NCBI GenBank assembly: GCA_025839675.1
Contig: CP104013.1
Location: forward strand, 5,790,001 to 5,822,000
Origin: Candidatus Lokiarchaeum ossiferum
Lineage (GTDB): Archaea; Asgardarchaeota; Lokiarchaeia; Sigyniarchaeales; Promethearchaeaceae
DNA: 32,000 bases
Direction: 5' to 3'
The notes under the pieces are model-generated. The model was not told the DNA's origin. It saw only the letters and a program-made list of their open reading frames with translations, and did not search any database. The translations under genes and the position numbers were made by a program. Shown one piece after another: positions 21,989-32,000 of this stretch. Within the stretch, counting starts at the first letter, position 1. Each line of letters starts with the position of its first letter.

Positions 21989-23818
21989 ATGAAAACTCTT
22001 AAACCTACTGTAAAAAAAGTTAACTCCTCAATTTTTTCCTATTATCAAGAAAAGTTGGTGTACTTAGCTGAGTATACTGCCCTAAAGGCAATAGAGCCCT
22101 ATCTTGCTCAATTTAAATCTGGAGAAAAACAAATATATTTTGTGAATAAACATGTTTCCACCCTCTACTTATCAGATGCGCTGCCTCCCGATCTTTTTCC
22201 CGAAATTGGTTTCTTCACTCATCTTACAACAATTCATTTTAGAAATCTTGATTCACTTACATGTTTCACGCACCTTTCCCCAACTTTAGAATGGTTACAT
22301 ATCGAATCCAAACATTTGCTCTCTTTTGAGGGGTTTCCTTCTCACTTAGACAAGCTTCAAGTCTTGTTGATTAAGTGTCCTAGCTTACACACCTTAGAAG
22401 GACTTCCCTCTATCTTGGATTCCCTTCAGTCTTTATCTATCTCTTGCAAAAGATTAAAATCTTTAAAAGGATTGCCGGAATCATCCCCTTCCCTTAGAAA
22501 TCTTGGAATTTGGGATACACCTATTGAGTCATTGGGTACCTACTTTCAACAAAGTTTTTTGTTAGAAGGAATTGGTTTAGAAAATGTTCCCATTAACAAT
22601 CTTCATAAGTTACCTTGTGAGTTGAATCATTTAGAAAAATTGGATTTGACTAATTGTGCTTTCCCGAACTTGGAAGGATTACCCCTTTCTTTACCCCGGT
22701 TAGAAAAAATGTACATTGGGATTGCATCTGATCGAGGAAACTATGAACACCCAACTGATGGTTATGATCTTATTCCATTTCACTCTGTGCAAGGTTTTCC
22801 CCAAGAAACCCCTTTGCTTGAAGAGTTATCCATCATTGGAACTGCCCTTACTTCATTAAAAGGGCTTACCCTCGCATTACCCAGACTAAATCATTTGATC
22901 ATCTCTTATAACCCCCTCCTCGTATCCATGCAAGGATTACCTAATGAGCTTCCAAATATGGAGTGGTTTGATATGGATAACAATGGCTTGCGCGATTTTC
23001 AATTTTTTCCTCGATTACCGGGAGCTCTGGAGTACCTTTCGTTCAAAAATAATCCTTTTCAATCTCTTCTAGGCATGTCGGAACATGTTTTAATAGAAAA
23101 ACACAGAAAATCTGAAATTGATCGAGTTTTTCGGCTTCCTCTTGAGTTCTCCAGGTTTGAATTAATTACTTTACATACCTCTTCCTTTGCCGCTTTAGTA
23201 GCAAATATTGCACGTTTTGATCTGATGGATGCTGAATTTGTCGGTAAGCAAAAATTTCCTCGATGTGCTGTGTCGCTCAATCTCACCCCAAAGGGATTTT
23301 TTCTTCTCAAGAAAGTGTGGGATTTTCATTGTATGAATTACGAAGCGATTTATGACGAGACCGCCTCCATGGATTACGAAATTGCTACCCTAAAAGTTCC
23401 ACGGGAGTGCACTCCTGAATCCTTCATGTTTTTTAAAACATTTCCCTCGCTATTCCTACCTCCTGATTATCAAATCTATTTTGATCAATGTGATGCCCAT
23501 CGGAAAAAGTGTGGCTGCGCAATGACTCGGTGGGATTTTGATGACCCCGCTTATTTCGCCGAAGCATCCGTGATTATCCTTTTAAAAGACGAAACTGGCG
23601 AAAATGATCAAATTTTTCTTCATGAAGCCTTCATGCGAGAATTGTATGCCTATTACCAGCTCTCGCCGATGGAATTAGCTCAAAAATATGTGGTAGAACA
23701 TTATCTGTCCGATGATGAGCGAGAGCGCCTGCTCTATGAGAAAAATACTGCGGTCATCAGATATTTGCTGCGTGAATTACCTGAGACAGACCCCATATTA
23801 GTGAAAATTCTGGAATAA
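21989..23818 (+). CDS. Cytoplasmic leucine-rich-repeat (LRR) protein with unassigned ~245-aa C-terminal domain
   Basis: 609-aa ORF starting at ATG with an upstream GGAG. I see no signal peptide or TM segment. It has an LRR solenoid (next feature). The C-terminal part (aa ~363-609, nt ~23075-23815) has no motif I recognise. Confidence 0.85.
   Translation: MKTLKPTVKKVNSSIFSYYQEKLVYLAEYTALKAIEPYLAQFKSGEKQIYFVNKHVSTLYLSDALPPDLFPEIGFFTHLTTIHFRNLDSLTCFTHLSPTLEWLHIESKHLLSFEGFPSHLDKLQVLLIKCPSLHTLEGLPSILDSLQSLSISCKRLKSLKGLPESSPSLRNLGIWDTPIESLGTYFQQSFLLEGIGLENVPINNLHKLPCELNHLEKLDLTNCAFPNLEGLPLSLPRLEKMYIGIASDRGNYEHPTDGYDLIPFHSVQGFPQETPLLEELSIIGTALTSLKGLTLALPRLNHLIISYNPLLVSMQGLPNELPNMEWFDMDNNGLRDFQFFPRLPGALEYLSFKNNPFQSLLGMSEHVLIEKHRKSEIDRVFRLPLEFSRFELITLHTSSFAALVANIARFDLMDAEFVGKQKFPRCAVSLNLTPKGFFLLKKVWDFHCMNYEAIYDETASMDYEIATLKVPRECTPESFMFFKTFPSLFLPPDYQIYFDQCDAHRKKCGCAMTRWDFDDPAYFAEASVIILLKDETGENDQIFLHEAFMRELYAYYQLSPMELAQKYVVEHYLSDDERERLLYEKNTAVIRYLLRELPETDPILVKILE
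22196..23074 (+). repeat. About 12 tandem 23-aa LRR units (69-nt period) inside the LRR gene
   Basis: The unit consensus is [LF]P..L..L..L.I....L.SL.G. Examples are FPSHLDKLQVLLIKCPSLHTLEG, LPSILDSLQSLSISCKRLKSLKG, LPCELNHLEKLDLTNCAFPNLEG and LPNELPNMEWFDMDNNGLRDFQF. Unit 8 carries a ~16-aa insertion (SDRGNYEHPTDGYDLI). Confidence 0.8.
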
Positions 23819-23870: not shown

Positions 23871-26354
23871 ATGTTGAAAAATAAGTTTCATGAATTGATC
23901 AAGAATAAGCCTCTTACATTTTTAGCGGGAGCAGGATGTTCAGTTGATAATCCTTCAAATCTCCCCGCAGGTAGTACAATGATAAGAAAAATTATTAGAT
24001 TTACTTGTGCTCTTGAAGAAACAAATAAGTTACTTTCTCTGAAGGATTTACGTTTTGAACAACTAATGGATATATTACGAGAACAACTAGATCCTGAATT
24101 ACATATAATAGATTATTTTTCTCTAAATAAATCTCCAAATTTACAACATTTTTTTCTTGCCCAGATGATAAAACTAGGTCATATTGTTATGACTACAAAT
24201 TTTGATTGTCTAATTGAGCAAGCATTATTAGAAAGTGATATTCCAAAAGAAAAATGTAGAGCAATCATCACTCGTAAAGATTTTAAACGATATTCAAATC
24301 CATCTCTATTATTTCAGCAAGGATTTTTTGGAGTTTATAAAATTCATGGTTCCGCTCTAAATCAATTTACTAAGAAATCTACGCGTGAATCCCTAGTTGC
24401 AACAATCCAAGCTTTTGGACAAAATAAAGAAGAAAGATCCGTTTTTCAAGTAGAAAAATTCAAAAAAGAATTTTTTACTCATGTTGATGATAACAGGACA
24501 CTCGTTGTAATGGGTTATTCAGGATATGATGATTTTGATATTGTTCCCACTTTAAAATTATTAAAAGATTTTAATGCAATCATTTGGATTGAATATCAGA
24601 AACATGATAATGGACAAGAAATAATTGAAAATATCCAAGATATAGTTCCATCCCCCGAGGATAAAATAGGAAAAATTTTATACGAAATTAAGCAAATTGG
24701 TGAAATAAAAGAAATTTACAGGATAAGAGCAAATACATCTCGATTAATTACTGAATTTTTTGAAAATAAGAAAAAACCGAGAGTAAAACAATATGAAATA
24801 CAAAATTTAGATGAATGGATGGAATCTGAACTGCCGAAACCAAAAAAATTCAAAAACTACTCGATTCCGTTTGATATCTATAATAAATTACTATTTCAAG
24901 AAGATGCCCTAAGATGCGGAGAAAAAATCTTAGAAATTGCAAATAAATCCCAAAATTTAGAGCTGAAAGCAACTACATTCAATAATGTTGGGTTAATTTT
25001 TCTTAATCAAGGAAAATATGATGAAGCTTTGAAATATTTTACAAATTCTTTGAATTTCTGTAATAAATTGAGTAGTCATAAAGGAAAAGCAGCAAGGTTA
25101 AACAATATAGGTCTAGTCTATAAAATGTGTGGAAATATAGACAAAGCATTGGAATATTATAAGGATGCATTTGAAATTGATATAAAGATCGGGGATATTA
25201 AGGGAAAATCAAATAGATTAAATAATATCGGACAAATTTTAGAGATCCAAGGTGAAATAGATGAAGCAATTAGTCACTATAGAAAATCGCTAGAAATTGA
25301 TAATGAAATGGGCGATCTTCATCAAAAATCCATTAAACTAAACAATATTGGTGAATTATTGTTCAAATGTGGAAAATGGGATGAAGCCTTAGAATATAAT
25401 CATGAAGCTTTTGAAATTGCAGAAAAATTAGCTGATTTAAGAGGTGTTGCTCGTTATTTAAATAATAAGGCGAATATTTTGCTTAATAAAGGTATTTTAG
25501 AGGATTCTTTTCAATATTATCAAAAATCTTTGAATATTGCTGAAAAAATTGGGGATATTCGTTTAAAATCAAAAATATTAATGAACTTAGGAGATTATTC
25601 AGAAAAGAAAGGAAATTATGTAATTTCGGAGAAATATTACAAAAAATCATTAGATGTTGTTGATAAATTAAAAGATCCACACTTAACCGCATCAATACTA
25701 ATAAAAATGGGTGAATTGCTAAAAAATAGGGGTATTTTTGACAAATCTTTAGCCATTTTTAAAGAAGCTTGGAATAAAATTGAAAAATCAATAAATATAG
25801 AATTAAAATTTTCTTTATTATATCAGATTGGAGATGTTTTGCATTATCAGAAAGAATTAGATATGGCACTTCAATATTTTCAAAATTCTTTGAAATTTTC
25901 AAATAAAATGAAGAATAGGTCACATTCCGCTTCAGTATATAACAATATTGGCTTAATTTATTATAAAAAAAAAAAAGATTCTGATTCTCTTAAGTATTAT
26001 AATAAAGCATTAAAAATATCAAAGGAAATAGGAAATATTAGATTACAATCAAGTGTCTTAAATAATTTTGGCACATTCTATTCCGCTAAAGGGAATTATA
26101 AGGAAGCATTTATTCATTTTCAACAAGCTCTATTAATTGATGAGAAATTAGACCAACCAAAATCAAAAGCAGAATTGCTTAACAACATGGGAATAGTTCT
26201 TTTTCGATTGGGAAAAAAAGTGGAATCTCTGGTGAACTTAAAAAATGCTCTAGATACATTAAATAATGGCAATCTTGAAAATATTGGATTAGCAAATACA
26301 ATAAAAAAAAATATCAACAATATTTTGAAGAATAATCAACCTTTCTCGAACTAA
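23871..26354 (+). CDS. SIR2-like (SIR2_2 / NADase-type) domain fused to an 11-unit TPR solenoid
   Basis: 827-aa ORF. The N-terminal part carries the SIR2_2 motif series and the C-terminal part is a regular TPR array (sub-features below). I see no P-loop (GxxxxGK[ST]), TM segment or signal peptide. Confidence 0.9.
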   Translation: MLKNKFHELIKNKPLTFLAGAGCSVDNPSNLPAGSTMIRKIIRFTCALEETNKLLSLKDLRFEQLMDILREQLDPELHIIDYFSLNKSPNLQHFFLAQMIKLGHIVMTTNFDCLIEQALLESDIPKEKCRAIITRKDFKRYSNPSLLFQQGFFGVYKIHGSALNQFTKKSTRESLVATIQAFGQNKEERSVFQVEKFKKEFFTHVDDNRTLVVMGYSGYDDFDIVPTLKLLKDFNAIIWIEYQKHDNGQEIIENIQDIVPSPEDKIGKILYEIKQIGEIKEIYRIRANTSRLITEFFENKKKPRVKQYEIQNLDEWMESELPKPKKFKNYSIPFDIYNKLLFQEDALRCGEKILEIANKSQNLELKATTFNNVGLIFLNQGKYDEALKYFTNSLNFCNKLSSHKGKAARLNNIGLVYKMCGNIDKALEYYKDAFEIDIKIGDIKGKSNRLNNIGQILEIQGEIDEAISHYRKSLEIDNEMGDLHQKSIKLNNIGELLFKCGKWDEALEYNHEAFEIAEKLADLRGVARYLNNKANILLNKGILEDSFQYYQKSLNIAEKIGDIRLKSKILMNLGDYSEKKGNYVISEKYYKKSLDVVDKLKDPHLTASILIKMGELLKNRGIFDKSLAIFKEAWNKIEKSINIELKFSLLYQIGDVLHYQKELDMALQYFQNSLKFSNKMKNRSHSASVYNNIGLIYYKKKKDSDSLKYYNKALKISKEIGNIRLQSSVLNNFGTFYSAKGNYKEAFIHFQQALLIDEKLDQPKSKAELLNNMGIVLFRLGKKVESLVNLKNALDTLNNGNLENIGLANTIKKNINNILKNNQPFSN
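23907..24605 (+). other. SIR2_2-type domain with putative catalytic Asn110 and His159
   Basis: The motifs occur in canonical order. They are LTFLAGAGCSVDNPSNLPAGS (GAGCS at 23928-23942), VMTTNFDCLIEQAL (Asn110 codon 24198-24200), VYKIHGS (His159 codon 24345-24347) and LVVMGYSGYDDFDI. The same motif set occurs in ThsA, DSR-type and other defence-associated SIR2 domains. Confidence 0.75.
24969..26288 (+). repeat. Eleven TPR-like (TPR_12/LGN-type) units in exact 40-aa / 120-nt register
   Basis: The hallmark dipeptide falls at aa 371, 411, 451, 491, 531, 571, 611, 651, 691, 731 and 771. At most of these positions it is NN (NNVGLIF, NNIGLVY, NNIGQIL, NNIGELL, NNKANIL, MNLGDYS, IKMGELL, YQIGDVL, NNIGLIY, NNFGTFY, NNMGIVL). 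No indel occurs across the 11 units. Confidence 0.85.
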
Positions 26355-26557: not shown

Positions 26558-27673
26558 ATGAGTTTCTTTCCAATAGAATTTGAAATCAGACGTAAATTTA
26601 TTAGAGTAGGTTATCTTTTTTTTTCTGAGACAAAAATGATCGCCACAACTCTTTTAAAAGAACCCCTTACGCCCTCTAAACGTTATCAATTCGAGAAACT
26701 TGGGAAAGGATTTCAGTTTTTGCAAAAAACTCGCTGGATTTATATCATTGTCATGGGTATCTTTTCCTTTAAGACACTTTTACAAAAAACTTTCTTTGGT
26801 CCTTTCTATGGTTGGATTGTGGATTCAAATTCAGATTCCTATTCCGGAATCCCTATGGGCCTATTAATATTTGGGATTCTTGCTATTTCAGTACCTCGGT
26901 TGATAGGAAATATAAATTTCATTGTTCAACTAAAAAGAACTGCCAAAATAATGCATGATGATCACTTCAAAAAAGCCTATCGATATCAACAAGCCCGTAT
27001 TGCTTTTTATGCCATTAATATCATCTTCATTGCTCTGATAGCGAACCGGATAATTATGTCCTTAAACAGATATTATTATTCCATAGTCGAGTATTTAGCT
27101 GCGTTCGCCCAATTTCCGACTCGTTATGGGATGGATGAAAATGTAATTGCGCTGGTAGTATTCTTTGGCTTGTTTTCATTAATGGAAAAATTAGTGAATT
27201 ACCTTACTTGGCGAGAATTCAGTTTTTGGAGTCAAAAACAGATAGATCAGGATAAAACATCTAAAAATTCCGAAATAATTCCCATGATGTTGAAGGGAAG
27301 CAAATGGATGCGTTATAGCATCATACTCATGCTTTTTGAATCTACAATTGGGAATATTGTCTTCAATCTTGGATTGAAAAAGCTTGAAAGGGGTTTTTCC
27401 TATTTTCCTAATCAAGAAGTGATGATCACCCCAATGAATTGCTTAAATCTATCAGCAATTTATCCTCACCAAGGTTTTATACCTTATCATACTACCGAAA
27501 ATACCTTTCAACGGCAGAATATCCAAAAAACCACTATCAATGATCAGCATCTTGCTACAACCTCCATTACGTCATATCCAATTCAAGAAATGGCTCAGTA
27601 TTGTGGATTCTGTGGTGTTGAACACCGATTCCAGAATGCTCAGTATTGTTGGAATTGTGGAAGAGAATTATAG
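26558..27673 (+). CDS. Polytopic membrane protein (about 5 TM) with C-terminal CxxC...CxxC zinc ribbon
   Basis: 371-aa ORF. Hydrophobic segments are WIYIIVMGIFSF, IPMGLLIFGILAISVP, IAFYAINIIFIALIANRIIM, VIALVVFFGLFSLM and YSIILMLFESTIGNIVFNLGL. The start is uncertain: ATG at 26558, or Met26 at about 26633. Confidence 0.7.
   Translation: MSFFPIEFEIRRKFIRVGYLFFSETKMIATTLLKEPLTPSKRYQFEKLGKGFQFLQKTRWIYIIVMGIFSFKTLLQKTFFGPFYGWIVDSNSDSYSGIPMGLLIFGILAISVPRLIGNINFIVQLKRTAKIMHDDHFKKAYRYQQARIAFYAINIIFIALIANRIIMSLNRYYYSIVEYLAAFAQFPTRYGMDENVIALVVFFGLFSLMEKLVNYLTWREFSFWSQKQIDQDKTSKNSEIIPMMLKGSKWMRYSIILMLFESTIGNIVFNLGLKKLERGFSYFPNQEVMITPMNCLNLSAIYPHQGFIPYHTTENTFQRQNIQKTTINDQHLATTSITSYPIQEMAQYCGFCGVEHRFQNAQYCWNCGREL
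27602..27658 (+). other. Zinc-ribbon motif at the C-terminus of the membrane protein
   Basis: CGFCGVEHRFQNAQYCWNCG is a Cys-x2-Cys-x12-Cys-x2-Cys arrangement ending 4 residues before the stop codon. Confidence 0.65.
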
Positions 27674-27916: not shown

Positions 27917-29005
27917 ATGGATTCAATTTTAAAAATTGGAAATCAAGGAAGATGTGATCTTTTTCTAAATCACATTGTTGGAAAGAGTCCTTTATTAGTA
28001 ACTGTGATTGGAAACACCGAAACGGGGAAAATTCCTGGGATTTCTGCCGCTGGGGCGAATCCAAATATTACTGATTTTACTCCCGCAGCTGATATAGAGT
28101 ATTTATATTATGAATTCTGTAAATGTATCCAAGGTGTTCCAGTAACTCCTACAGGTATTCCCACGCCTGGAATAATTACTAAAGCGATTATTGATCATTT
28201 AGATTTTCCTCATCTCACAGTTATTGGAGGTGTGAATATTTTCCCTTCCGCTCCCTTTATTTCTTTAGGGGGAAATGCAGGGGGTGATATTTCAACTGGT
28301 AGCGCTGTTGAAAACCCTGAAAAGATATTTGCTAATGGAGAAATTCTTGGTAAAAACCTCTCAAAAATTGCAAATTATCTTGTGATTGGGGAATCAATTG
28401 CTGGTGGGACAACTACTGCTCTTGGTGTTCTTACAGCGTTAGGTTATGATGCAAATAATAAAGTAAGTAGTTCCTTGCCAGAAAATCCATCTCGATTAAA
28501 GATTGATATTGTGACAAGTGGCTTAAAGGCAAGAAATCTGAAGAAAGGAGATTTAAAAGAAGATCCCCTTAATGCTATAAAATATTTTGGTGATCCGATG
28601 CAAGCAGCAGTATTGGGAATCATTTCTGGTGTATCTGGAAAAATTCCGGTATTATTAGCTGGTGGAACTCAGATGGCAGCAGTACTCGCTCTTGCACAAA
28701 ATCTAAATCCTAATTTAATTTCAAACGTGGCTATAGGAACGACAAAGTGGATTGTTAACGATGAAAGTTCAGATATTTTAAATTTAATAAATCAAATCAA
28801 TCCTACGGTTCCCATTTTGGCTGCAAATTTCAACTTTGGAGATATAAAGTATGAAGGATTAAGAGTTTATGAAACTGGAATGGTAAAGGAAGGGGTTGGG
28901 GCAGGAGGATGTGCAATTGCGGCTATAATGACCGATCCTAAGAAAATGACCATTGACATATTGCAAAAAGAAATAGAAAAAAAATATGAGCATTTATCCC
29001 TTTGA
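27917..29005 (+). CDS. UPF0284 family protein (TIGR00303-type, archaeal CobT-like nicotinate-mononucleotide phosphoribosyltransferase homologue)
   Basis: VIGNTETGKIPGISAAGANP, VIGESIAGGTTTALGVLTALGYDA, LLAGGTQMAAVLAL and VKEGVGAGGCAIAA match the conserved blocks I remember from MJ1598-type UPF0284 proteins, and the length (362 aa) fits. Confidence 0.85.
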   Translation: MDSILKIGNQGRCDLFLNHIVGKSPLLVTVIGNTETGKIPGISAAGANPNITDFTPAADIEYLYYEFCKCIQGVPVTPTGIPTPGIITKAIIDHLDFPHLTVIGGVNIFPSAPFISLGGNAGGDISTGSAVENPEKIFANGEILGKNLSKIANYLVIGESIAGGTTTALGVLTALGYDANNKVSSSLPENPSRLKIDIVTSGLKARNLKKGDLKEDPLNAIKYFGDPMQAAVLGIISGVSGKIPVLLAGGTQMAAVLALAQNLNPNLISNVAIGTTKWIVNDESSDILNLINQINPTVPILAANFNFGDIKYEGLRVYETGMVKEGVGAGGCAIAAIMTDPKKMTIDILQKEIEKKYEHLSL

Positions 29006-30922: not shown

Positions 30923-32000
30923 TTACGATGTACTATTTTTATTTTTTGAACCTTTCCTTCTTATAACAATTCCCAAGAGTAATGATAAAACCATTGGTAA
31001 TGTGGAAAAACCAGAAATATTTTTTTTTTCCTCAACTACATTTGTTTTTTCTGTGGTCGTTTCTTCTGTAGATGTCTCTGTTGTGTTGGCTTGAATTTCT
31101 TCTTTGTTGACAGTCAAGATTACAGTGTTATTTGATGAATTTCCATTTATATCATAAATCAAAATAGTTATTTCATAGGTTCCAGGTTCTAATCCATTTG
31201 GGATTGAAAAAGTGATTTCTGCCCCACTTGTCCATATAGCTTCAGATTCTATTTCAGTCCCATTCATGTATATCGAGTAATTAGTTGGATTAAGCTCTAC
31301 CACAATCCAAGAAATGATAGTGTCCAAATAATTTTCATCAATATTAAAATCTGATGGATATTTTATGATAATTGGTGCCTTGTTATCAATGGAGACGGAG
31401 AAAACTAAAGGAAAATTATCAAATCCATCCCCTTCACCTCTAATTTTGTAAGGTATATTCCAGATAATTCCATTATTCTCCGCGTCACTATAAATGGATG
31501 TATATTCTTCACCCCAAAAATTTCCAAAACCATTTTTATCCCATTCATTTCCTTCACACATCCCCGTTTCATTCGCTTGTATTAACTGATTATTTTGAAT
31601 ATTATTTCTATAAATCGTGTTATTATTACTGTTTATTAAGATCAAACCAATTTCCAAATTAAATTCGATACAATTATAATGGCATTCATTGTCATTGGAA
31701 CCAAATAAATACAACCCATATTGATTATATTGAACTGTATTATTGGAAATAGTACTAAAGAGTGAATTAAATAGTGCAATTCCAGCAGTACTCATTGATG
31801 CTATGTTTTTTGAAATACTACTCGTATGAGAATACGTTAGTGCAATTCCTACCGTATTGTTCCCAACTTCATTTTCGATTATAGTGGAATTATCTGAGTT
31901 AGACACCATGATCCCCATGCCTTGACAATCATTAACATAATTCTCAGATATTGAAATAAAATCAGTCTCTAGGATGTGGATTCCATGATTTGAATTTTTT
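30923..32000 (-). CDS. NosD-like right-handed parallel beta-helix surface protein with Ig-like domain, Thr/Glu-rich linker and C-terminal anchor (5' end beyond window)
   Basis: The frame stays open to nt 31999: ...KNSNHGIHILETDFISISENYVNDCQG precedes the Met used by the ORF track. PbH1-type repeats are present (NSTIIENEVGNNTVGIAL, STISNNTVQYNQYGLYL, NTIYRNNIQNN). There is a NosD-like GFGNFWGEEY...DGFDNFPL box, then an Ig-like module, then the linker and anchor. Confidence 0.85.
   Translation of the reverse strand, partial: KNSNHGIHILETDFISISENYVNDCQGMGIMVSNSDNSTIIENEVGNNTVGIALTYSHTSSISKNIASMSTAGIALFNSLFSTISNNTVQYNQYGLYLFGSNDNECHYNCIEFNLEIGLILINSNNNTIYRNNIQNNQLIQANETGMCEGNEWDKNGFGNFWGEEYTSIYSDAENNGIIWNIPYKIRGEGDGFDNFPLVFSVSIDNKAPIIIKYPSDFNIDENYLDTIISWIVVELNPTNYSIYMNGTEIESEAIWTSGAEITFSIPNGLEPGTYEITILIYDINGNSSNNTVILTVNKEEIQANTTETSTEETTTEKTNVVEEKKNISGFSTLPMVLSLLLGIVIRRKGSKNKNSTS
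30926..31015 (-). other. PGF-CTERM-like C-terminal sorting/anchor signal (variant 'SGF')
   Basis: The linker ANTTETSTEETTTEKTNVVEEKK is followed by SGFSTLPMVLSLLLGIVIRRKGSKNKNSTS, i.e. a small-G-F tripeptide, a hydrophobic helix and a basic tail. This is the layout of archaeosortase (PGF-CTERM) substrates. Confidence 0.45.

Follow-up and report, generated by a model that had tools for sequence, protein, structure and literature searches.

SIR2 NADases recur as executioners in prokaryotic immunity, and relatives of them, the FAM118 proteins, occur in humans. To our knowledge, all characterised immune SIR2 NADases are bacterial and are wired to SLOG, APAZ/Argonaute, HerA, STAND or a DSR2-type sensor, and oligomerisation activates all of them. 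Here we describe a gene that joins SIR2 to tetratricopeptide repeats (TPR), hereafter SIR2-TPR, in 32,000 nucleotides of Candidatus Lokiarchaeum ossiferum DNA (contig CP104013.1, positions 5,790,001 to 5,822,000; this whole stretch is called the window, and coordinates are counted from its first letter). What is new is an immune-type SIR2 fused directly to a canonical TPR superhelix in the archaeal lineage closest to eukaryotes, and it is noteworthy mainly for the size of the family to which the protein belongs and for the restriction of this family to Asgard archaea.

Domain structure and comparison with described SIR2 systems

The complete SIR2-TPR gene lies at 23871..26354 on the plus strand, with ATG as start and TAA as stop codon. 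Its position and its length of 827 aa are exactly those given in the initial annotation of this DNA. An identical protein is present on six public contigs. The layout is an N-terminal SIR2_2 domain, followed by eleven TPR_12 repeats and a cap helix. Pfam detected SIR2_2 (PF13289) at residues 105-221 (E = 3.6e-9, 37.3 bits against a gathering cut-off of 24.5) and TPR_12 (PF13424) in eight stretches (E = 7.5e-71), so both domains proposed from the letters alone were recognised. The protein had also been said to carry no NTPase, and this is matched with the Pfam and motif scans, which revealed neither a Walker A motif nor a match to an NTPase family. NCBIfam has no model for the protein, and its TPR matches were all below threshold. 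Composition was considered as a possible sign of foreign origin: the GC content at third codon positions of the gene is 0.18, the minimum of the window, and the neighbouring genes have widely spread values of 0.22 to 0.42.

The N-terminal module is an alpha/beta fold of the immune type ('SIRim') with a helical insertion, which covers residues 1-327 (23871..24851, plus strand) according to Pfam, AlphaFold2 (AF2), Foldseek and a PDB profile search. The four motifs reported before were located at the named residues, all on the plus strand: GAGCS, the Rossmann NAD-binding loop (residues 20-24, 23928..23942); TTNFD (residues 108-112, 24192..24206), which includes Asp112 and Asn110 with its codon at 24198-24200; KIHGS (residues 157-161, 24339..24353), with the codon of His159 at 24345-24347; and MGYSGYDD (residues 214-221, 24510..24533), a strand and loop after the beta strand 209-214. 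GAGCS and MGYSGYDD were assigned by motif and conservation. The SIR2 part had been thought to end at residue 245. It does contain the motifs, but extra strands of the sheet are at 234-242, 251-254 and 281-287, beyond this border, and the first ~340 residues form one conserved unit among the relatives.

For residues 1-345, an AF2 model from 39 sequences reached a predicted local distance difference test score (pLDDT) of 85.7 and a predicted template modelling score (pTM) of 0.87. Foldseek comparison of this model with the PDB gave SIR2-HerA (8wld, E = 2e-6) and EcThsA (8wc0, E = 4e-5), with further matches to ThsA (6lhx) and DSR2 (8wkt, TMq 0.53; 8xff). Immune SIR2 NADases were matched at E = 2e-6 to 1e-4, whereas sirtuins were matched at E~1e-2 or worse. 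A single-sequence search of the PDB with residues 1-343 gave no match at E<=1. With a profile built from 17 family members, the closest solved relative by sequence was the SIR2-APAZ of SPARSA (8jkz/8in8, E = 6e-7), followed by the Sir2 of SIR2-HerA (8w9l, E = 0.005), ThsA (7uxt, E = 0.011) and human FAM118B (9r3e, E = 0.011), and classical sirtuins had E = 0.07 or worse. The module has only four cysteines (23, 46, 113 and 129), which are scattered and form no CxxC pairs, and thus it does not have the zinc ribbon of sirtuins. Pfam gave no match of the protein with the sirtuin family PF02146.

The family profile alignment placed TTNFD on the TTNFD of GsSir2 (N142) and KIHG on the KIHGD of GsSir2 (H186). 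Mutations N142A and H186A of GsSir2 abolished NAD+ consumption, and the pair was named the catalytic dyad (PMC10781750). Asn110 and His159 are therefore equivalent to a proven NADase dyad, which agrees with the earlier proposal that they are the catalytic pair. Conservation was determined in 255 relatives gathered by homology search, with those aligned at each position as denominators. N110 and D112 were each kept in 251/251 relatives and H159 in 251/253; G20, G22 and S24 of the NAD loop were invariant where aligned, and G215, Y216, G218 and D223 were near-invariant. This indicates strong purifying selection on the active site, and the view that the domain is intact with its catalytic-position residues was borne out.

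This conservation also bears on whether the SIR2 fold could be a catalytically dead scaffold, retained on a TPR adaptor only to bind NAD or for structural reasons. Some SIR2-like domains are nucleotide sensors, but an NAD loop and Asn/Asp/His residues that are near-invariant across the 255 relatives are the pattern of a working site, and we regard a dead scaffold as very improbable. Based on the PDB profile, the Foldseek results, the missing zinc ribbon and the residue conservation, the SIR2 domain of the window protein is intact and belongs to the immune-type SIRim branch. We know of no characterised member of this branch that is not a NADase of a conflict system. The domain most likely hydrolyses NAD+ through the Asn110/His159 dyad, judged from the aligned residues.

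The remainder of the protein had been described as a helical solenoid with TPR_12-type repeats, and this was confirmed with a start at about residue 328. The solenoid is all-helical and has 25 helices in residues 328-820 (24852..26330, plus strand), as seen with the full-length AF2 model, Foldseek and TPR_12. In the full-length model (46 sequences, pLDDT 91.3, pTM 0.84) the solenoid follows directly after SIR2. Repeat analysis resolved eleven in-phase TPR_12-type units of 40 residues at residues 362-801 (24954..26273, plus strand), with the consensus xxxxKAxxLNNxGxxLxxxGxxDxALxYxxxALxIxxKxx and 29% mean unit-to-unit identity. A C-terminal cap helix at residues 806-820 (GLANTIKKNINNILK; 26286..26330, plus strand) was found by AF2 and by the alignment of relatives; its tail, ...NIxxIKx, is similar in full-length relatives, and seven residues follow it at the C terminus.

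LGN has Leu-Gly-Asn repeats and binds extended peptides in a groove, as in the LGN-NuMA/Inscuteable complexes. Foldseek with the full-length model found its best matches on the TPR half, namely TONSOKU/TSK with the tail of histone H3.1, the superhelix of OGT and many complexes of LGN/Pins with extended peptides, at 17-20% identity, which is compatible with generic TPR similarity. These eukaryotic proteins are scaffolds and differ from the window protein in having no enzymatic SIR2. The LNNxG motif that recurs in the window protein is reminiscent of the Leu-Gly-Asn repeats in LGN, and from these likenesses the TPR superhelix is most likely a binding groove for a protein or an extended peptide.

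Compared with SPARSA, the GAGxS loop, TTNFD and KIHG align residue for residue with GsSir2, and the SIR2 matches of the protein in PADLOC were to Argonaute-associated SIR2 models only. The window protein differs from it in having no APAZ and in ending with a C-terminal TPR array, and nucleic-acid-guided activation is not possible in the same way. We found no Argonaute in the window open reading frames (ORFs) from 21.9 to 32 kb, nor among 144 immediate neighbours of the relatives. These 144 genes are the census used below; in addition, ~1,200 ORFs from 89 loci were clustered all-against-all.

The initial annotation had likened the fusion to DSR2. The part order and the SIR2 fold support the likeness: both are single polypeptides with N-terminal SIR2, C-terminal helical repeats and no NTPase, and the SIR2 folds superpose (the TMq of 0.53 given above). 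A specific relationship with DSR2 did not hold, because only SIR2 is shared. Homology was not detected outside SIR2, the sensor is TPR_12 here and a MID plus solenoid C-terminal domain in DSR2, and the window protein has 827 aa against about 1000 aa, an archaeal host and no defence-island context. If it were a true DSR2-family protein, it would have a homologous sensor for a viral tail-tube-like protein and would form a DSR2-type tetramer. The shared part order and the DSR2 entries among the structural matches are in line with this, but PADLOC gave no DSR model at E<=0.01, the likeness is limited to SIR2 and is no better than that to ThsA or SIR2-HerA, and the sequence is nearer to SIR2-APAZ. 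In addition, the C-terminal part is a TPR_12 array with no equivalent of MID, and no DSR2 entry occurred among the 50 best structural matches. Membership in the DSR2 family is thus scarcely credible to us.

ThsA and SIR2-HerA have the same immune-type SIR2 fold and were the top Foldseek matches. In contrast to ThsA, the window protein has no SLOG or Macro domain, and no ThsB/TIR gene adjoins it; TIR genes stand directly beside one relative only, that of locus L004. In contrast to SIR2-HerA (Nezha), no HerA gene was present in the window or among the commonest neighbour families. SIR2-STAND and NLR-type proteins (Avs, bNACHT and eukaryotic SIRim-NACHT-TPR) share the N-terminal immune SIR2 and the C-terminal repeat sensor, whereas the window protein has no central NTPase and gave no match to Walker A, NACHT, NB-ARC or AAA. 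In the Effector-TPR-GreA/B-C-PIN system, a constant C-terminal module of TPR, GreA/B-C and PIN (Kaur et al. 2021, PMC8195603) is fused directly to an N-terminal effector of varying type, SIR2 among them, again with no NTPase; the window protein differs in ending with the TPR cap helix, and Pfam detected neither GreA/B nor PIN. By every testable criterion of membership the window protein falls outside DSR2, ThsA, SPARSA, SIR2-HerA, SIR2-STAND and the system of Kaur et al.

A large SIR2-TPR family in Asgard archaea

We defined the family by an N-terminal SIR2 module of ~340 residues (profile E<1e-90), with a TPR_12 array directly behind it and a conserved cap helix at the end. The window protein belongs to it, with E = 5.7e-146 against the family profile. 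Homology search with residues 1-343 gave 87 proteins at 33-58% identity, nearly all of them with SIR2_2 and TPR. All named relatives are from Asgard archaea, that is, from metagenome-assembled genomes (MAGs) of Lokiarchaeota/Promethearchaeota, Hermod-, Hod- and Odinarchaeota or from strain MK-D1, and the profile search agreed with this. The archaeal context assumed before is confirmed by these relatives (Asgard MAGs or Promethearchaeum syntrophicum MK-D1), and also by an archaeal-type CobT gene two genes downstream.

A hidden Markov model search of 1.84 billion cluster representatives (50% identity) gave 583 at E<=1e-30 and 2,095 at E<=1e-10. The family size is taken as a lower bound, at least 583 clusters at 50% identity. 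The proteins have about 600 to 3,154 residues with a median of 766 aa, and the SIR2 module is N-terminal in 202 of the 210 members having a complete module. In species-representative genomes 271 loci were confirmed, and the best 80 of them are all Asgard except one MAG labelled Woesearchaeota; the cultured P. syntrophicum MK-D1 (locus L089) is among these 80. Up to five family copies are present per MAG. A Hermodarchaeota MAG (L023:7950-12461) carries a tandem SIR2-TPR pair of 712 and 759 aa and has at least five members. The family is therefore large, nearly confined to Asgard archaea and present as several paralogues per genome, which answers the earlier suggestion to survey the phyletic distribution of SIR2-TPR fusions. 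The number of clusters, the multiple paralogues and the tandem pair together indicate a lineage-specific expansion. The family is not strictly archaeal, since a distant relative (P0087, L098:8001-9572) with 33% identity to the SIR2 module was found in a bacterial Eisenbacteria bin; its helical tail is not recognised as TPR by Pfam, and it is the one member seen outside Asgard archaea.

In the names given by NCBI, family members are just 'tetratricopeptide repeat protein' or 'SIR2 family protein'. Our literature search revealed no paper with 'SIR2-TPR', and the papers on Asgard defence and on SIR2 did not describe the family. A survey of SIRim that includes 496 Asgard genomes reported eukaryotic SIRim-NACHT-TPR, and the accessible part of its text does not single out the Asgard SIR2-TPR family (Bonhomme et al., bioRxiv 10.1101/2024.09.18.613514). 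Our searches gave no published description of the family and no defence catalogue that lists it.

Some relatives have additional parts. One of 1,477 aa (P0100) has the order DUF4062, TPR, SIR2 and TPR, and another of 3,154 aa (P0185) has three matched SIR2 stretches. In P0117 and P0099 a ubiquitin-conjugating (UQ_con) domain or TBP is joined to SIR2-TPR. Such N-terminal fusions, present in few relatives, were not trusted, as they may be mergers by gene calling.

Proposed mechanism, genomic context and the question of defence

We propose that the protein would act as a cytoplasmic single-chain sensor-effector with neither an NTPase nor a conserved operon partner. The TPR groove would bind a protein or an extended peptide ligand, and binding would relieve autoinhibition of SIR2, drive SIR2 self-association, or both. 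SIR2 would then hydrolyse NAD+ via Asn110/His159, and the depletion of NAD+ would lead to growth arrest or death. DSR2 is reported to be switched on by the tail tube protein (PMC11850899), and SPARSA to require tetramerisation (PMC11452484); because of these precedents we infer gating and oligomerisation, and in the same manner, from domain type, NADase chemistry and a role in conflict. As a whole, this model of a stand-alone ligand-gated NADase is in our judgement evenly balanced between right and wrong. Within it, an NAD+-consuming chemistry under TPR control is probable, while the immune role is tentative and falls somewhat short of an even chance.

The variation within the family is in part favourable to a conflict role. 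The window protein is a singleton at the 50% identity cut, with a best match of 52%. Its clade has lengths from 705 to 1106 aa, and TPR identity is 41% there against 58% for SIR2; fast-diverging TPRs and variable length are as expected for a sensor. A conflict trigger is favoured by the domain type and by this variable clade, and conflict or immunity is our first guess for the fast-diverging clade to which the window gene belongs.

Several loci have an accessory character, and some members have immune-type signalling genes nearby. In a Lokiarchaeota MAG (GCA_016933055.1, L004:5871-11330) the SIR2-TPR gene is directly downstream of TIR_2, NUDIX and TIR_2/zinc-ribbon genes, a gene set of Thoeris-like composition, and several other members are near LRR-TIR, TIR-LRR-Roc or TIR-STAND-LRR genes (LRR, leucine-rich repeat). 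An apparent 'TIR cluster' of neighbours was rejected, as single linkage had chained together multidomain proteins with TIR, LRR and Roc-GTPase parts. At another locus (L005:9284-17237), SIR2-TPR, TnpB (OrfB_IS605) and three peptidase S15 genes break up a ribosomal-protein cluster that is otherwise typical archaeal (L39e, L31e ... eIF6, L18Ae, prefoldin, signal recognition particle receptor), and this interruption suggests an insertion of accessory DNA.

The following results weigh against a defence role. Clustering of the ~1,200 ORFs from 89 loci revealed no conserved neighbour across the family. By Pfam, the 144 immediate neighbours were most often OsmC (8), FAD oxidoreductases (6) and alpha/beta hydrolases (6), and also LRR (5), TPR (4) and metallo-beta-lactamase (4) proteins. 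PADLOC found among them just two TnpB-like, two Csx1-like and two viperin-like radical-SAM genes and one reverse transcriptase. Two distant subfamilies, 35-40% identical to the window protein, are in conserved multi-gene synteny with housekeeping-type genes in 8-11 species; the syntenic genes encode OsmC, CCG-domain, metallo-beta-lactamase, Roadblock/LC7, PHP and ATP-grasp proteins. One subfamily, group A, has a length fixed at 707-709 aa in eight species and TPR identity of 73% against 69% for SIR2, which suggests a stable and possibly endogenous ligand. The family was not found on viral contigs, where there were four distant SIR2 matches at 25-29% identity. In the window, neither tRNA genes nor meaningful flanking repeats were found around the SIR2-TPR gene.

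A rival explanation is an endogenous regulator, in which SIR2 would use NAD+ to ADP-ribosylate or deacylate a cellular partner, or would tune NAD+/ADP-ribose signalling, and TPR would recruit the partner. The family would then be an Asgard-specific signalling expansion, comparable with small GTPases, LRR and TPR proteins. In favour of it are the ortholog groups in housekeeping-type synteny, the group A TPR as conserved as its SIR2, the near-complete lack of known defence genes among the neighbours, and the near-wholly Asgard distribution of a family that is not on viral contigs and gave no sign of recent horizontal spread among the matches seen. The TPR half is also like eukaryote-type scaffolds for endogenous peptides, as in TONSOKU-histone H3.1 and LGN-NuMA. 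On the other hand, the SIR2 is by sequence and fold in the branch of conflict NADases and does not have the zinc module of protein-deacylating sirtuins. Moreover, the window protein is a singleton whose clade has variable repeat number and fast-diverging TPRs, and the conserved synteny is limited to the distant subfamilies. For the window protein we consider a purely regulatory role somewhat unlikely. The neighbour census and the subfamilies with conserved synteny and sequence do favour a role in the cell for at least some members of the family.

The initial annotation had regarded a consistent housekeeping context of homologues as an argument against its proposal. Such a context is present for the two syntenic subfamilies, whereas the window's clade is variable in length and in TPR. 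A search of related genomes anchored on CobT gave only relatives of 38-60% identity, with no shared synteny with SIR2-TPR. The defence role, suggested by the domain type and only weakly supported by the context, is unproven; the weak enrichment of LRR genes beside family members and an LRR-SIR2-TPR fusion, both described below, are one hint in its favour.

In a wider proposal, the large and vertically inherited repertoire of NTPase-less SIR2-TPR proteins in Asgard archaea might be an NLR-like system of innate immunity or programmed dormancy. Its TPR superhelices would sense viral or danger-associated peptides directly and turn on NAD+ depletion, and it may be linked in evolution to eukaryotic SIR2-(NACHT)-TPR. 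The repertoire covers hundreds of lineages, and some members are fused with or adjoin LRR, TIR or DUF4062 modules. We regard this proposal as unlikely. If the immune role of the ligand-gated NADase is true, antiviral defence in Asgard archaea, of which the picture is still sparse, would gain a major and abundant component, and the family would serve as a simple model of ligand-gated NAD+ depletion that needs no NTPase. If the regulatory role is true, it would be the first case of an immune-type SIR2 recruited into housekeeping signalling. Either outcome is testable because cultured Asgard strains carry members (MK-D1, L089).

The LRR gene and other genes of the window

The order of genes in the window is a giant ORF, an LRR protein, SIR2-TPR, a membrane/zinc-ribbon protein and archaeal CobT. 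The LRR protein (21989..23818, plus strand, 609 aa, LRR_4 by Pfam) ends 52 nucleotides before the start of SIR2-TPR and is a candidate partner. It could be the sensor or adaptor of a two-component system, with both genes co-transcribed across the 52-nucleotide gap, and the SIR2 effector would receive its signal through the TPR. The same strand and the short gap are in line with this, and LRR genes make up 4/144 of the immediate neighbours compared with 4/639 of the farther genes (Fisher p=0.04; five of the 144 by Pfam if that of the window is included). In one relative (P0138, L097:4648-7620), a single continuous ORF of 990 aa carries an N-terminal LRR array and SIR2-TPR, and it is a possible 'Rosetta stone' for the adjacency of LRR and SIR2-TPR in the window and at L021. 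However, the association is seen in <5% of loci, is statistically marginal and concerns genes that are common in these genomes, and the orientation relative to SIR2-TPR differs among loci, as LRR is upstream at L021 and downstream at L009, L053 and L071. The LRR protein of the window has no homologue in the other family loci, which speaks against a conserved partnership. A search of 5.8 billion proteins gave no homologue of its C-terminal 245 residues, which thus form an orphan domain directly upstream of SIR2-TPR. The LRR link is a hint rather than a system, and we hold the two-component explanation to be quite improbable.

The giant ORF (30-21893, plus strand) has 7,287 aa in the window and 9,702 aa on the public contig (L001). 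Its GC content is 40-48%, against 26-38% in the remaining window. Pfam detected only Laminin_G_3 and Big_7, with no matches in the second half, and the product is probably a huge surface or adhesin-like protein.

Downstream of SIR2-TPR, 26558-27673 (plus strand) encodes a multi-pass membrane protein of 371 aa with a C-terminal duplicated CxxC zinc-ribbon and a weak match to DUF7577; a 23-nucleotide direct repeat at 27593/27638 is in this gene. The archaeal-type CobT is encoded at 27917-29005 (plus strand) and matched TIGR00303 with 364 bits against a cut-off of 240. The substrate of CobT is nicotinate mononucleotide, and its gene is the second one downstream of that for the putative NAD-consuming SIR2.

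On the minus strand, 30923-31918 encodes a NosD/beta-helix protein with an Ig-like domain and a Thr/Glu-rich linker, which has 892 aa on the same public contig. Its C terminus has a hydrophobic segment and then a basic tail, the architecture of a surface-anchored protein.

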